Source: an uncultured Bacteroidales bacterium
GTDB taxonomy: Bacteria; Bacteroidota; Bacteroidia; Bacteroidales; WCHB1-69
Assembly (NCBI GenBank): GCA_937892025.1
Contig: CALAVA010000042.1
Span: 739 to 64,738, forward strand
Length of the DNA stretch: 64,000 bases
Direction of reading: 5' to 3'
The notes under the pieces are model-generated. The model saw only the letters and a list, made by a program, of their open reading frames with translations, did no database searches and was not told where the DNA came from. The first letter of the stretch is position 1. Every line of letters starts with the position of its first letter. Of this stretch, positions 44,569 through 47,667 are shown in pieces. The translations under genes and the position numbers were made by a program.

Positions 44569-45759
44569 TTACACCCTTGTATAATACTTCCTCCTGTCCA
44601 CCAATTTTCTCATTCCGCTGTCAAACACTCCAAAACGCATGAATTGACTACGCATAAAAAGAGACCGAAGATTCTTGTAAGAGTTCGTATGTTGTAGCAA
44701 GCCAAGGTAACTATTTACGGAACGTAGCACCAGCACAGGATTTGAGCAATTCATCTCCTGTATCTTTTTCTTAATCCGTTGCAAGGCATGATTAGAAATA
44801 TATGTGCGGTATGGCAAAAGCCAAGAGCCAAGAAACTCCACTCCTCTATGCACCTCTTGAATTGTTGTCTTGCCCCTATGCAATTCAAGCCCCAACTTGT
44901 CAGACAAAAACTTATCCACAACAGGAACAAGAGACAAAAGGTAAGCCTTGTCAGCCGATACCACCACCGCATCATCCACATACCTTCCATAATACCGACA
45001 CTTCAACACACGCTTCATATACTGGTCAAGCACATTCAGATACACATTTGAGAACAACTGAGATGTCAGATTCCCGATAGGCAAGCCAAGCCCATCTTCT
45101 ATGTGCAGCATACTTTTTGCCGCATCCAGACCATCCCAGTTTGATTCAGTCCCAATGATGATGCAGTTCTCCCTCGGATTCAGCATTACAATCAGTTCCG
45201 TCAGCCACAGCACAAAGTCCATATCCAATACGTCACCCCACGTCTTCCATGATTCTGAATCCACTCTGTGCGTTGACATTTTCTTTATACTCCCCATCGT
45301 AATGCCAAGCAATATGTTTCTGTTTATGTGCATGAAATAACCCCGAACATCCAAATGCAGAACATAGCACTTTCTTTGCCAGTTCCTTGATTCCTTTCGA
45401 CAAAAATCCTTAACCCTATCTATTCCGTAGTGCGTCCCCCTGTCCTTGATGCAGGAATAGGCATCCTGTATGAATGTCCGTTCAAATAAAGCGTGTGTAT
45501 AGTTGAAGTAAAGATGATGCACAATCCTGTCACGGAACACCGCTGCAAAGATTTCCCTCTTCTTTGGATAGTCCACAACAAAACACTTGCTGGGCAAAGG
45601 CTTATAAGTTCGGCTGTACAGTTCATCGCACAGTTCCTCCATGTTCTGTTTTAGGTTTGCCTCCCACTTCTTTACGTAAGAACGTCGTCCTTTGTGTTTT
45701 CTCGCACTATAATAAGCCACATAAAGGTCAAGTAGCATTTGTTGTCGAGTCAGTTTCAT
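44569..45759 (-). CDS. DGR reverse transcriptase
   Basis: RT motifs including LPIGNLTSQLFSNVYLN (the DGR-specific IGxxxSQ) and YGRYVDDAVVV (YxDD); starts 44 nt downstream of the TR. Confidence 0.9.
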   Translation of the reverse strand: MKLTRQQMLLDLYVAYYSARKHKGRRSYVKKWEANLKQNMEELCDELYSRTYKPLPSKCFVVDYPKKREIFAAVFRDRIVHHLYFNYTHALFERTFIQDAYSCIKDRGTHYGIDRVKDFCRKESRNWQRKCYVLHLDVRGYFMHINRNILLGITMGSIKKMSTHRVDSESWKTWGDVLDMDFVLWLTELIVMLNPRENCIIIGTESNWDGLDAAKSMLHIEDGLGLPIGNLTSQLFSNVYLNVLDQYMKRVLKCRYYGRYVDDAVVVSADKAYLLSLVPVVDKFLSDKLGLELHRGKTTIQEVHRGVEFLGSWLLPYRTYISNHALQRIKKKIQEMNCSNPVLVLRSVNSYLGLLQHTNSYKNLRSLFMRSQFMRFGVFDSGMRKLVDRRKYYTRV

Positions 45760-45803
45760 CTTTCGTAATAAGGTAATAAAAAGGGGGCTATCAGAATTGT
45801 ATG

Positions 45804-45992
45804 CTGAACCGCCCGAACGGCGAAGCCGTAGAACCTATTATTGTTGTTCTGCGGATTCACGCCGCCGCTGTTAAAGTTCAAGTTCCTACCTTGCGAAGCG
45901 GAGTAGAGCGATGACGACCAGTAGACGCCATTCGCACCACGATTGTTCCACGACGAACCGTTACCGTTACCAGAGCAAGGGAAAAAGAGCCT
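45804..45992 (-). repeat. DGR template repeat (TR), 189 bp
   Basis: 100% identical to 46834..47022 by base-by-base comparison; lies in a non-coding position between the accessory gene and the RT. Confidence 0.85.
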
Positions 45993-46136
45993 ATCGGTCA
46001 CATCCTTATACGAAAGCCTAACAGGGTTGTACTAAATGGCAAGACCATTAGGATTCTTCTCTTTTTCTCGCATCCACAAAGACGAAAGACGTGTGACCTG
46101 TGAATATCTTTCCGAACCGCCCCCCCTATTTTATTA

Positions 46137-46697
46137 TTAAAATAATTTGGTTATGTCCTGTCGAAGAGAGCGCAAGAAATCATACGCCTCAATAGGAGAT
46201 TTTGATTCCAACTGAAAAGCCAGTACACGACCAATGACATCACTTATTCTTGTGATGCGAGGCTCTGCATCCCTAACCTCTCTTTCCTCTCTGCGTTTCT
46301 TTTTCCCCTCCGTCAACGGTAAAGAGTTCTTCCAATCCTCTTTCTGACGATTTAGATTTTCAAAACTTACTTCGCCAATCTCCACGGGCAACTCTACCAC
46401 AACATCTATCTGCACATCGCTTACTGGCTTAAACTCAACCGAACCGTCATTAGGCACATACTTGCCCAACGAAGAAACGGGGAATCCGACAAAAGCATCA
46501 AGATACCCGTCTTTCAGACGTTTAACTGTCACTCCCATTGGTTTTTCCGCTGCCGCCCCAAACGGGAACTTAGACATAATCCATGCACTCCAGTCGTGAG
46601 CACGATAAAACTCGCCCTCCTTTAAGAAGTGAACCACGTTGAACTCATCTACGTTCGTTCGCTTGCTCTCTATCTCTATAATCTCTGCTATAGTCAT
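46137..46697 (-). CDS. DGR accessory protein, MutS-domain-I-like (MSL-type), in the Avd position
   Basis: ..FNVVHFLKEGEFYRAHDWSAW...GVTVKRLKDGYLDAFVGFPVSSLGKYV.. parallels MutS domain I (GDFYE...AG.P......Y); lies between target and TR. Confidence 0.55.
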   Translation of the reverse strand: MTIAEIIEIESKRTNVDEFNVVHFLKEGEFYRAHDWSAWIMSKFPFGAAAEKPMGVTVKRLKDGYLDAFVGFPVSSLGKYVPNDGSVEFKPVSDVQIDVVVELPVEIGEVSFENLNRQKEDWKNSLPLTEGKKKRREEREVRDAEPRITRISDVIGRVLAFQLESKSPIEAYDFLRSLRQDITKLF

Positions 46698-46711
46698 TTT
46701 TTTTATTTTAA

Positions 46712-46783
46712 CTCATTCTTCCCCACGTTCATGCCTTCTGCCATCTTGTGATGGCTGGGGGCATGTCCGAAGGAAAGAATGAG
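46712..46783. promoter_or_regulatory. long imperfect inverted repeat (cruciform/hairpin) downstream of the VR
   Basis: Nested stems: ctcattctt (46712-20) with aagaatgag (46775-83); catgcc (46730-35) with ggcatg (46760-65); gccatc (46740-45) with gatggc (46750-55); loop ttgt. Confidence 0.5.
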
Positions 46784-46830
46784 ATTGGTTTGTAATTTGT
46801 TTTGTTTGTTCTTTTAGGGTAGGAAAGATA

Positions 46831-47667
46831 TTACTGAACCGCCCGAACGGCGAAGCCGTAGAACCTATTATTGTTGTTCTGCGGATTCACGCCGCCGCTG
46901 TTAAAGTTCAAGTTCCTACCTTGCGAAGCGGAGTAGAGCGATGACGACCAGTAGACGCCATTCGCACCACGATTGTTCCACGACGAACCGTTACCGTTAC
47001 CAGAGCAAGGGAAAAAGAGCCTCTTACCATTGATTTTAGAACGCAACAGCAAACCTGTAATACCGTTCACAGTAGTCCTACGGTCTGTAGAAGAGAGAAC
47101 AGTGCCATCCGATGTGATGGTGTCACAATTAGAATATAACTCGGAAAACTCTTCAGTAGTGGGAAGCCTCCAGTTACCACCGAGATTCATCCTTGCAGCA
47201 TCATTGCCAAGACCGCAGTTGTTGCCACCAAAGGTGGTGGCTGTGATGCTTGCACCATACGTGTCTGCATACGTCCCGTCATTGGTCGTACCCCAATCGT
47301 AATTGCCCACAAAGGCATTTGTGCCACTCGTTACACCTGCTTTCGGATTGATGCCGAACGTGTTGCCCCAAGAGAAGAAGGAGCACTCATACTGATAGAC
47401 GGATTCCGCAAAGCCGTTCTGCCTTGTCACGTCCAAGTTCCGTGTCGCCCACATCAGACCCGATGGCAGTCCTAAGTCAACCAGCAGTTCGTTCTCATCC
47501 TTTGATGCACCAACGACAGATGAAATTTTGGTTATCGTCTGTCTGTCAATAAGCGTGCCGTTTGCATCAAACAGGGGAATTTGATACCCTCCCAATGTCG
47601 AATTTGTAGCACCCGATTGCGAAATGGCTTGCATCTCAGCCGTTAAAGCATTTTTGAATGTACTCAT
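46831..47667 (-). CDS. DGR target protein: tail-fibre-tip / receptor-binding protein with C-terminal C-type-lectin-fold variable region
   Basis: The last 63 codons equal the VR; Asn-rich ..NGNGSSWNNRGANGVYW...NLNFNSGGVNPQNNNNRFYGFAVRAVQ*; WATRNLD / FFSWGN motifs; last gene of the tail-fibre array. Confidence 0.8.
   Translation of the reverse strand: MSTFKNALTAEMQAISQSGATNSTLGGYQIPLFDANGTLIDRQTITKISSVVGASKDENELLVDLGLPSGLMWATRNLDVTRQNGFAESVYQYECSFFSWGNTFGINPKAGVTSGTNAFVGNYDWGTTNDGTYADTYGASITATTFGGNNCGLGNDAARMNLGGNWRLPTTEEFSELYSNCDTITSDGTVLSSTDRRTTVNGITGLLLRSKINGKRLFFPCSGNGNGSSWNNRGANGVYWSSSLYSASQGRNLNFNSGGVNPQNNNNRFYGFAVRAVQ
46834..47022 (-). repeat. DGR variable repeat (VR), 189 bp, ending at the stop codon of the target gene
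   Basis: Identical to the TR at 45804..45992; identity breaks exactly at the stop codon (46831-33) and at 47023. Confidence 0.85.

Follow-up and report, generated by a model that had tools for sequence, protein, structure and literature searches.

Diversity-generating retroelements (DGRs) are, to our knowledge, the only system in nature that directs hypermutation to particular proteins of prokaryotes, and their biochemistry is known almost wholly from one Avd-dependent element. The DGR of Bordetella phage BPP-1 is arranged as mtd-avd-TR-brt, with a target gene ending in a C-terminal variable repeat (VR), a small accessory gene, the template repeat (TR) and the reverse transcriptase (RT) gene, and the bRT-Avd RNA contains an upstream:downstream 'cPRT stop' duplex (bioRxiv 10.1101/2023.10.23.563531). 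Small MutS-like (MSL) accessory genes have been described in the DGRs of Architecture D (Wu et al. 2018), for instance that of Legionella pneumophila Corby, and in those of Bacteroides Bfr, Bth and Bun; the published MSL DGRs all carry avd as well (16 of 16 cases in Wu et al. 2018), and so do the Bacteroides ones. The CH1 proteins, which are small (160-169 aa), acidic (pI 4.7) and motif-free, are confined to DGRs devoid of avd, HRDC and annotated MSL (Wu et al. 2018).

We analysed a stretch of 64,000 nucleotides from an uncultured Bacteroidales bacterium (hereafter the window) and compared its DGR with these systems. The DGR is real and lies in an uncultured phage, in which, as far as the sequence tells, the tip of one phage protein would be rewritten by error-prone reverse transcription. 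We hold with good confidence the overall reading of the locus as a phage-borne DGR of the form target(VR)-accessory-TR-RT, along with the mechanism and the account of the identity of TR and VR that are set out below.

Locus organisation and the reverse transcriptase

The open reading frames and a repeat check place on the minus strand, in this order, the target gene (46831-47667), an accessory gene of 186 aa (46137-46697), TR (45804-45992), the RT gene (44569-45759) and a terminator, and the coordinates and motifs given in the earlier note on this DNA were all reproduced from the sequence. The cassette ends in a hairpin followed by a T-run (44471-44502, minus strand), which is the sole terminator-like site within 44300-47800. 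The order is conserved in 15 loci, where VR is followed by a spacer, an accessory gene of 182-190 aa, 134-165 nt, TR, 26-47 nt and RT. The spacer between VR and the accessory gene spans 98-215 nt, and 98-136 nt in all of these loci except one.

The target protein of 278 aa gave weak matches in its C-terminal domain to Lcl_C (DUF1566; E 4.8e-6) and Fib_succ_major (FISUMP; E 2.7e-5), both under the Pfam gathering score. Its homologues form more than 684 clusters, and among 28 of the homologues weak matches to Lcl_C and Fib_succ_major were found in 17 and 12, respectively. Such a weak and mixed pattern is like that of the 'category d / CLec2' targets (Wu et al. 2018). No sequence relative of the target was found in the PDB, and its AF2 model had a pLDDT of 47, too low to confirm a C-type-lectin fold. 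The gene had been proposed to close a five-gene tail-fibre array, which we could not confirm, as the five genes upstream had no Pfam or PHROG match and no detectable similarity to one another. Judged from its position, the target is plausibly a tail-fibre gene with a putative role in host binding.

The RT is 396 aa long from its first ATG; the start chosen by gene callers is the ATG at 45738, which makes a product of 389 aa. Placement in the DGR clade was judged from motif 4 ([ILV]GxxxSQ) and from closeness to known DGR RTs. The protein carries IGNLTSQ at residues 228-234 and YVDD at residues 260-263, and it matches Pfam RVT_1 (E 1.4e-10) and phrog_1423 (E 2.4e-88). Its top PDB match is a 328-aa YMDD 'Reverse transcriptase', 8ub7 (E 1.4e-30), which we take to be the Bordetella phage bRT, whereas no retron or group II RT scores better than E 4e-9. 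Among solved structures, the Bordetella DGR RT thus appears by sequence to be the closest to the RT of the window. Phage RTs, including those of Bacteroides phages F1, F2 and F4, are 33-37% identical to it over about 90% of its length.

A different reading would deny that a DGR is present. The RT would then be an enzyme of the defence, group II or retron type, and the 189-nt repeat would have arisen independently of it, when the 3' end of a structural gene was duplicated. It draws on the top NCBIfam model, which is a group II intron RT/maturase (TIGR04416, 102 bits), on additional matches to Drt and retron models, and on the label 'retron-type' that several related phage RTs bear in GenBank. 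However, these scores all lie far under the cut-offs (102 vs 300 bits for group II, 36.7 vs 235 for retron St85, and likewise for Drt), Rfam finds neither a group II intron RNA nor a retron RNA of the msr/msd family, and the match to the DGR RT structure is 20 orders of magnitude better than those to retron or group II RTs. The RT is of the DGR type, as had been claimed, and the remaining evidence on this alternative comes from the repeats.

The repeat pair and its adenine signature

TR and VR form an exact direct repeat of 189 nt (45804-45992 and 46834-47022, minus strand; 189 of 189 positions identical), whose identity breaks off sharply at either end and which occurs nowhere else in the 64 kb. 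VR comprises the last 63 codons of the target (codons 216-278) up to the stop codon, and TR is non-coding and lies 44 nt upstream of the RT start. The adenines of the repeat are placed non-randomly within codons, with 36 of 38 at positions 1-2; the third position holds 2 of 38 adenines in VR vs 37 of 170 in the body of the target gene (p = 0.011). The richness of VR in AAY codons, remarked on in the earlier note, was borne out (13 of 63 codons vs 19 of 215 in the remaining gene; Fisher p = 0.012). The repeat closes with 24 GC-rich nucleotides that are adenine-free save one A in the terminal CAG codon, and this IMH-like 3' end occurs together with an inverted repeat downstream of VR.

TR and VR of the window show no difference in 189 nt and the adenine signature is absent there, a point in favour of the no-DGR reading; with zero mismatches, the signature is unreadable from the window sequence alone. 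The sibling contig L001, which represents the same phage and is 98.5% identical to the window, has 17 TR/VR differences, every one at a TR adenine. In the 16 related loci, TR and VR differ at 15-29 sites per locus, and TR adenines account for 302 of the 320 differences in total. In a related DGR recovered on at least 8 contigs from different assemblies (L026-L035), TR is invariant and VR occurs as three haplotypes that differ at adenines. Since sibling and relatives display adenine-specific differences, their lack in the window was not taken to exclude a DGR. The earlier assignment as a complete DGR is strongly backed by the RT affinity, the placement of adenines in codons and, most of all, the adenine-specific TR/VR differences of the sibling contig and 15 related loci.

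The overwhelming adenine-specific pattern and the non-random adenine placement leave the view that no DGR is present extremely improbable. It is effectively refuted by the 8ub7 match of the RT and by the adenine-specific differences in the sibling and 16 related loci.

A further contig from the sibling sample, L002 (Logan), begins directly behind a TR-adenine site that lies 25 nt from the end of VR, and it reads through TR without a break. This start point fits heterogeneity of VR among the reads, and such a contig break at the last variable adenine is a footprint of VR hypervariability.

The earlier note took the VR of the window to be unmutated, a view that the sibling TR does not support. 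The TR of L001 and L002 contains 42 adenines and the window repeat 38. The window TR differs from it at five sites, of which four are adenines in the sibling TR (A->N; binomial p = 0.01) and one is a C->T change at position 153. Two of the altered codons, GTC and TAC in the window, read AAC in each of the 16 other family TRs, so that the window TR looks like a VR. TR and VR of the window share the four A->N changes and are probably homogenised copies. In other words, both positions hold a derivative of the true TR that has undergone light mutagenesis at adenines, and copy homogenisation is the best reading of the identity of TR and VR, rather than a resting state or a VR left unmutated. We lean towards assembly or polishing as the source of the homogenisation. 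Change at 4 of 42 adenines is odd both for a VR, the relatives having 15-29 changed sites, and for a TR; we conjecture that a mosaic consensus would account for the small number.

Homogenisation by a biological route, either VR->TR gene conversion or homing of mutagenised cDNA into TR, is unlikely in our estimate. It would leave an eroded template, with 38 adenines in place of 42 and without two of the conserved AAC codons, and a VR that was not rewritten since. Such a route agrees with the A->N changes of the window TR at family-invariant codons and with the status of the window as a distinct strain, about 1.5% diverged and not the sibling re-assembled. It also agrees with the identical GC-rich 3' ends of TR and VR; as these have no IMH/IMH* difference inside the repeat, discrimination between TR and VR would rest on flanking elements only. 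However, TRs are extremely stable, that of the related DGR being identical in at least 8 contigs from different samples, and two independent assemblies of the sibling, by MEGAHIT and Logan, contain the same canonical TR. Moreover, the identity is seen in one of 17 loci, and the contig with that locus was assembled from a metagenome, a setting in which near-identical repeats easily collapse.

Improbable to a greater degree is a VR freshly reset by non-mutagenic copying of TR (faithful retrohoming or TR->VR recombination), which would make VR truly 'naive' and TR the drifted template of this strain. The exact identity across the full repeat speaks for such a reset, as does the C->T change at position 153 relative to the sibling, at least one lineage-specific TR/VR change in the window strain. 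Against it, TR must have lost four adenines, and with them two AAC codons that are invariant in the family, at a divergence of about 1.5%, and homing must have spared 38 of 38 adenines, in contrast to the 15-29 changed sites per VR of the relatives and to published retrohoming events, which altered about half of the available sites.

Copy homogenisation is the preferred reading, and it holds the lesson that a TR identical to VR on a metagenome contig should not be taken for an 'unmutated VR'; here, sibling assemblies revealed the real template. If the identity were biological, it would show that a mutagenised copy had overwritten the template in nature, with information passing from VR to TR.

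The accessory protein and the structured elements

The accessory gene is no orphan and encodes a divergent MutS-domain-I protein of the MSL type, from a large uncultured family. The protein (186 aa, pI 5.4) consists of about 100 N-terminal residues resembling domain I of MutS, which recognises mismatches, and a helical C-terminal extension of about 80 residues that is conserved. The sequence itself has no Pfam, NCBIfam or PHROG match. Its AF2 model (pLDDT 81) was compared with the PDB by Foldseek, and the top 12 matches were all MutS with probability up to 1.0 and rmsd of 2.2-3.5 Å over 57-79 columns, their E-values being weak (0.04-0.3) yet consistent; the top BFVD matches were MutS-like too. 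Besides, 14 of 52 diverse family members match Pfam MutS_I (best E 2.3e-4), and the family profile aligns to a MutS_I ORF of the same window with an hhalign probability of 86% (E 4.7e-6). At least 90% of the close family retain the Phe of the Phe-X-Glu motif, whose Glu position is Arg or His. That other ORF of the window is a separate, bona fide MutS_I protein.

In related loci the accessory gene always lies between VR and TR. We searched for Avd (PF05635) and found no match among the 48 other window ORFs of 85-215 aa or among flanking small ORFs sampled from related loci, and the C-terminal half of the accessory protein had no PDB sequence match to Avd; the Avd family is divergent, and a Pfam-negative Avd-like protein may be present. 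Among 50,697 deposited phage genomes, there was neither a tblastn match to the accessory protein nor a nucleotide match to the DGR region.

Two conserved structures flank the repeats and are new, namely a covariation-supported RNA scaffold around TR and a long hairpin after VR. RNAalifold on 17 loci delineated a structured domain upstream of TR (45996-46124, minus strand), with the 5' strand of P1 at 46119-46124 (possible extension 46110-46115), P2 formed by 46092-46098 and 45996-46002, and the hairpins P3 (46066-46089) and P4 (46012-46056). Covariation places the 3' strand of P1 at 45783-45796, 8-21 nt after TR and followed by a T-run, and this long-range duplex clamps TR into a closed loop. 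Across the 17 loci, 91.4% of cells were paired vs 38-48% with slid partners, compensatory changes occurred in 25 of 39 pairs vs 7-11 with slid partners, and none of 500 shuffles reached the observed pairing and compensation values. P1a is AAGGAT/ATCCTT in most loci and GGGGGC/GCCCCC in the window, with double compensatory changes in 5 of its 6 pairs and 95% of cells paired.

The second element is a long, imperfect, GC-rich hairpin (46712-46783, minus strand) that begins 50 nt downstream of VR and has no T-run after it. Its DNA fold has -24.4 kcal/mol (z = -7.2), and none of 200 shuffles was equally stable. An equivalent three-tier hairpin is present in 14 of 14 distinct loci of the family despite diverged sequence, with a compensatory change in 8 of 10 aligned pairs. 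The Rfam matches at the locus were solely sub-threshold ones of miRNA-precursor type, to this hairpin. We consider it a candidate target-recognition element of the cruciform type.

Proposed mechanism and comparison with known systems

By homology with characterised DGRs, the TR transcript would include both flanks, which would fold into the conserved scaffold, with P1 closing the TR loop and P2-P4 just 5' of TR. The RT would then make cDNA of TR with misincorporation opposite adenines, nearly all of them at codon positions 1-2 and mainly in AAY codons, and the cDNA would take the place of codons 216-278, the C-terminal stretch of the target. VR is probably labelled as the recipient by the GC-rich 3' repeat end together with the hairpin about 50 nt past VR. 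The MutS-domain-I protein occupies the place that Avd has in the Bordetella element. Host MutS cuts retrohoming 5-10-fold in Bacteroides (bioRxiv 10.1101/2024.11.15.621889), and an anti-mismatch-repair role of the accessory protein is the inference we prefer: it would bind the heavily mismatched cDNA:VR heteroduplex, or otherwise hamper host MutS, and new variants would thereby evade mismatch repair, which in Bacteroides was shown to act in an all-or-nothing way. The helical C-terminal half of the accessory protein may touch the RT or the RNA.

More tentatively, the window may be the type example of a large, uncultured, Avd-less DGR lineage of Bacteroidota phages, with an RT-positioning RNA scaffold upstream of TR that is closed by a long-range clamp, and with the MutS-domain-I protein as sole cofactor, whose point of action would be either the cDNA:VR heteroduplex with its mismatches or host MutS, which it would counter. 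If so, the lineage would be mechanistically distinct in DGR ribonucleoprotein assembly and product fixation. Hundreds of phage DGRs have a MutS-domain-I protein at the Avd position, no detectable Avd and a covariation-supported RNA scaffold, and they make a concrete second system for asking what Avd does that another protein can replace. The family is also suited to asking how newly made, heavily mismatched VR heteroduplexes evade host mismatch repair, a question that the recent ΔmutS result in Bacteroides has posed.

Among deposited phage genomes, the closest RTs (35-37% identity) belong to the cultured Bacteroides phages Bacuni_F1, F2 and F4 (Hedzet et al. 2021); the accessory protein of the window has no tblastn match in the deposited genomes. 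The CH1 genes of the Avd-less Lineage 3a DGRs (Wu et al. 2018) resemble the accessory gene at first impression, but a comparison by description only sets 160-169 aa and pI 4.7 against 182-190 aa and pI 5.4 for the window family.

The element of BPP-1 shares with the window the gene order, a GC-rich repeat 3' end, a hairpin past VR and, in its RT, the closest solved relative. Mutually pairing RNA segments flank TR in both, and P1 is comparable to the 'cPRT stop' duplex. The window differs in that its accessory protein is an acidic MutS-domain-I protein and not the basic Avd, its structured RNA (about 130 nt) lies mainly upstream of TR, and its family has 26-47 nt between TR and the RT start vs a downstream spacer of 140 nt in BPP-1. 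Further, its target is of the DUF1566/FISUMP type and not Mtd, and its repeat has no internal IMH/IMH* difference.

The MSL-containing DGRs share the small MutS-like accessory gene, the 186 aa of the window falling within the published 112-283 aa, and the Legionella DGR has a target of the same class, with weak mixed DUF1566/Fib_succ_major matches. In contrast to them, the window phage and the flanks of related loci have no detectable Avd, and the accessory protein, likened to published MSL by description, is too divergent from MutS for Pfam, is mildly acidic (pI 5.4) and bears the conserved helical extension. The DGR of the window is unusual solely in having a MutS-like helper without Avd, and is otherwise a known system.

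Architecture and identity of the retroelement

The locus is a genuine diversity-generating retroelement (DGR), and the order proposed for it in the earlier note, namely target, accessory gene, template repeat (TR), reverse transcriptase (RT) and terminator on the minus strand, was reproduced from the ORFs, the repeat and the hairpin. The target ORF (47667 to 46831, 278 aa) carries the variable repeat (VR, 46834-47022) in its codons 216-278, ending at the stop codon, and is followed by the accessory ORF (46697 to 46137, 186 aa), the intergenic TR (45804-45992), which lies 44 nt before the RT start, the RT ORF (45759 to 44569, 396 aa) and a terminator-like hairpin with a T-run (44502 to 44471) which closes the cassette. 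The TR and VR form an exact direct repeat of 189 nt with sharp identity edges on both sides, and no further copy was found in the 64-kb window. The reported count of 13 AAY codons among the 63 of the VR was obtained again, against 19/215 in the rest of the target gene (p = 0.012). Codon positions 1-2 hold 36 of the 38 repeat adenines, position 3 only 2/38 compared with 37/170 in the rest of the gene (p = 0.011). An 81-aa GTG-start ORF spans the TR (45756-46001, minus strand), but this is a by-product of the coding sequence copied in the TR and does not merit annotation as a gene.

The RT carries the IGNLTSQ (residues 228-234) and YVDD (260-263) motifs ascribed to it, and its best PDB relative was a 328-aa YMDD reverse transcriptase (8ub7 and eight sister entries, E 1.4e-30), which we take to be the Bordetella phage bRT, judging by its length and YMDD box. 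Retron and group II RTs, clustering with which the earlier note had named as a refutation, came next at E 4e-9 or weaker. NCBIfam, which contains no DGR model, returned group II, Drt and retron models, all far below their cut-offs, while PHROG 1423 was matched at E 2.4e-88. The closest deposited phage RTs, among them those of Bacteroides phages F1, F2 and F4, shared 33-37% identity.

As the TR and VR are identical in the window, the adenine signature could not be read there alone. The accessory protein was, however, present residue-for-residue on two more contigs from the bioreactor metagenome run ERR1278104, a 62-kb MEGAHIT contig (L001) and a 23-kb Logan contig (L002). Over the DGR region L001 and the window share 98.5% identity, which makes L001 a second strain of this phage. 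Its TR and VR differ at 17 positions, all 17 at TR adenines, and the related loci, with 15-29 differences each, place 302 of 320 at TR adenines (16 loci). Judged from these sequences, the DGR lineage of the accessory-protein family is canonical and active.

The close homologues of the accessory protein fall into more than 141 clusters, rising to 582 clusters at the level of 50%-identity representatives (E <= 1e-3), and the protein is carried by twenty IMG/VR viral contigs and two rumen MAGs (Prevotella, Bacteroidaceae). The order VR, accessory gene, TR and RT was constant in the 15 loci with both repeats, with a VR-accessory spacer of 98-215 nt (98-136 nt in all but one), an accessory gene of 182-190 aa, 134-165 nt to a TR of ~185 nt, and 26-47 nt to an RT of ~395 aa. 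Neither a nucleotide search with the DGR region nor tblastn with the accessory protein gave a match among 50,697 deposited phages, so that this large uncultured DGR family is absent from deposited phage genomes. One member (L004) is a two-target version of the cassette, in which two tandem target genes, 68% identical, are served by one TR (5710-5896), their VRs (3754-3940 and 4691-4873) differing from it at adenines in 14/16 and 18/19 cases. In a related DGR recovered in ten assemblies from different samples (L026-L035), the TR was identical in 8/8 contigs that include it and the VR occurred as three haplotypes, one common to six contigs and two rarer, which suggests the spread of dominant VR haplotypes between samples rather than ongoing diversification.

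The window is a phage genome with a large terminase (58828-60606), a portal (57305-58831) and replication genes on the other strand, and the target is preceded in the structural-gene block by a 1221-aa protein and four more genes. These five upstream genes matched no family and showed no similarity to each other by blastp, so the tail-fibre array is a conjecture drawn from gene position. Between the window and L001 the whole block aligned except the C-terminal half of the 572-aa gene adjoining the target; this half looks like an exchanged distal domain of the kind known from receptor-binding proteins, and fits the presence of such proteins in the block. The divergence covers window positions 47712-48724 and L001 positions 3825-4986, the L001 version being 622 aa. 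The C-terminal domain of the target gave weak matches to both Lcl_C (DUF1566) and Fib_succ_major, found also in 17/28 and 12/28 of its homologues, respectively. The target profile had no match in the PDB, and its AF2 model from a 28-sequence alignment (pLDDT 47) was too low for fold search, which leaves a C-type-lectin fold putative. The replication-side half of the genome also encodes a RadC-like JAB protein (5783-6259), two ORFs with HNH endonuclease matches (21293-21751, also NUMOD4, and 29821-30327) and an ORF (30933-31325) with only a sub-threshold I-HmuI NUMOD-like match.

Identical template and variable repeats

Among the 17 loci, the TR and VR are identical in the window only. The earlier note had taken this for an unmutated VR, a claim which was not supported, as the window repeat carries A-to-N changes relative to the sibling TR. 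That TR is the same in both independent assemblies (L001, L002), and the window repeat departs from it at five positions (AA to GT, A to T, C to T and A to T), at four of which the sibling TR has an adenine (binomial p = 0.01). The window codons GTC and TAC, moreover, are AAC in every other TR of the 17-locus alignment. With two otherwise invariant AAC codons altered and four of five changes at adenines, the sequence at both positions derives from the real template by light adenine mutagenesis, and is not a pristine TR carried over unchanged into the VR.

As TRs are otherwise invariant and the window is a metagenome contig, the most economical reading, and the one we favour, is that two 97%-identical repeats were homogenised in assembly or polishing. 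A true VR-to-TR gene conversion, or retrohoming into the TR, would equally have left the mutagenised sequence at both positions, though the invariance of the other TRs makes this a less likely course. Least likely of the three is a faithful TR-to-VR reset on a TR that had drifted, an improbable reading beside the adenine changes. The identity is, in short, probably not biology. Exact look-ups of the window RT (389 aa), target, 572-aa and 311-aa proteins matched no indexed contig, and an exact 39-mer from upstream of the TR had no match in IMG/VR or JGI metagenomes.

L002 passes through the TR without a break, yet its start lies 25 nt from the end of the VR, directly after the last internal TR-adenine site, and two IMG/VR contigs (L007, L016) have the same kind of start point. 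All three starts lie ~160 nt upstream of the accessory gene, within the last ~25-30 nt of the VR. Breaks at such places seem to reflect a hypervariable VR among the reads.

A MutS-like accessory protein and a structured RNA

The window accessory sequence matched nothing in Pfam, NCBIfam, PHROGs or the PDB, and HMM profiles of its close and broad family had no match in the PDB; its MutS homology is visible only by fold search, by a scan of diverse members and by profile-profile comparison. An AF2 model built from 29 homologues (pLDDT 81) was compared with the PDB by Foldseek, and MutS accounted for each of the best 12 matches, the alignments falling on its N-terminal mismatch-recognition domain (57-100 columns, rmsd 2.2-5.5 Å, probabilities reaching 1.0, although E was no better than 0.04-0.3); the best matches in a viral library were MutS-like proteins as well. 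Pfam MutS_I was matched individually by 14 of 52 diverse family members (best E 2.3e-4), no other Pfam family recurring among them, and the family profile aligned in the expected register with the phage's own MutS_I ORF (hhalign probability 86%, E 4.7e-6). These results place the accessory protein among the DGR accessory proteins which Wu et al. 2018 called MSL (MutS-like). At least 90% of the close family retain the Phe of the Phe-X-Glu motif of MutS, whose Glu is replaced by Arg or His.

The MutS_I ORF (6352-6714, plus strand), 40 kb from the DGR, encodes a stand-alone 120-aa domain I protein with the canonical GDFYE motif (Pfam MutS_I E 2.8e-21), so that the phage carries two MutS-domain-I proteins; the stand-alone one may be a general anti-mismatch-repair factor. 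Avd (PF05635), the accessory protein of the Bordetella-type DGR, was matched neither by the 48 other window ORFs of 85-215 aa nor by flanking small ORFs sampled from related loci, and the helical C-terminal half of the accessory protein had no match in the PDB and none to Avd. The accessory protein may instead be related to CH1, the acidic accessory proteins of Avd-less DGRs (Wu et al. 2018).

RNAalifold on the 17-locus alignment, which covers the stretch between the end of the accessory gene (stop codon) and the start of the RT, gave a consensus of four helices, where P1 is a long-range duplex enclosing the entire TR, P2 a 7-bp helix ending three nucleotides before it, and P3 and P4 are two hairpins. 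On a structure with these helices 91.4% of cells were paired, 25 of 39 pairs had compensatory changes and the covariation score was 0.49, compared with 38-48%, 7-11 pairs and 0.13 or less when the 3' partners were slid by 1-3 columns, and 0/500 shuffles reached the observed values. P1 reads GGGGGC/GCCCCC in the window and AAGGAT/ATCCTT in most loci. In nearly all loci its 3' strand is directly followed by a T-run (window 45770-45796, minus strand; alignment columns 372-395), resembling the 3' arm of an intrinsic terminator, with the 5' arm ~330 nt upstream; RT expression could in this way be coupled to folding of the DGR RNA. Two copies of the heptamer GGTTCAG occur, one at the 3' end of the TR and the other directly past the 5' strand of P1, where the window has GGTTCGG (columns 358-364 and 43-49, window about 45804-45810 and 46111-46117, respectively). 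A downstream TTCTGA could pair with either copy (81% paired, one compensatory pair, a weak covariation), which suggests alternative resting and priming conformations.

Downstream of the VR, a 72-nt imperfect hairpin (46712-46783, z = -7.2) was detected, and the same three-tier design, with changed sequence, follows the VR in every family locus. Its role as an intrinsic terminator was rejected, as no locus has a T-run after it. Inverted repeats are published to mark VRs in about one third of DGRs, and by analogy the hairpin is read as their putative counterpart. Rfam gave nothing in the DGR region except sub-threshold plant miRNA-precursor (MIR6426) matches on both strands at this hairpin (46706-46789), a generic long-hairpin false positive.

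Proposed mechanism and relation to known DGRs

The cassette combines its parts in constant order with adenine-only variation in relatives, MutS-I homology and RNA covariation, without detectable Avd. By analogy with characterised DGRs, the TR would be transcribed together with its flanks and reverse-transcribed with mutagenesis at adenines, and the cDNA product would replace the VR. In Bacteroides, deletion of host mutS raised retrohoming 5-10-fold and left the mutation pattern the same (bioRxiv 10.1101/2024.11.15.621889), which implies that mismatch repair either erases the heteroduplex wholly or misses it. A domain-I-only MutS homologue in the cassette would be well placed to bind the heteroduplex or compete with host MutS, a purpose similar to which the other, canonical MutS_I ORF of the phage may work. 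Another possibility is that the accessory protein takes the place of Avd as the RNA-loading partner of the RT via its C-terminal helices.

Weak and mixed matches such as those of the target define CLec2 category d targets, of which the Legionella DGR, also with MSL, is the type (Wu et al. 2018); the window cassette shows the same weak mixed pattern with an MSL-type accessory protein. Every MSL-bearing DGR of that survey also had Avd, as did those of Bacteroides described by Macadangdang et al., whereas the DGR here has an MSL-type accessory protein and no detectable Avd. The upstream RNA scaffold is new here; its P1 resembles the upstream:downstream duplex of the Bordetella DGR RNA (bioRxiv 10.1101/2023.10.23.563531), whereas, unlike in that RNA, most of the structure is found on the upstream side of the TR, and only a very short spacer separates TR and RT.
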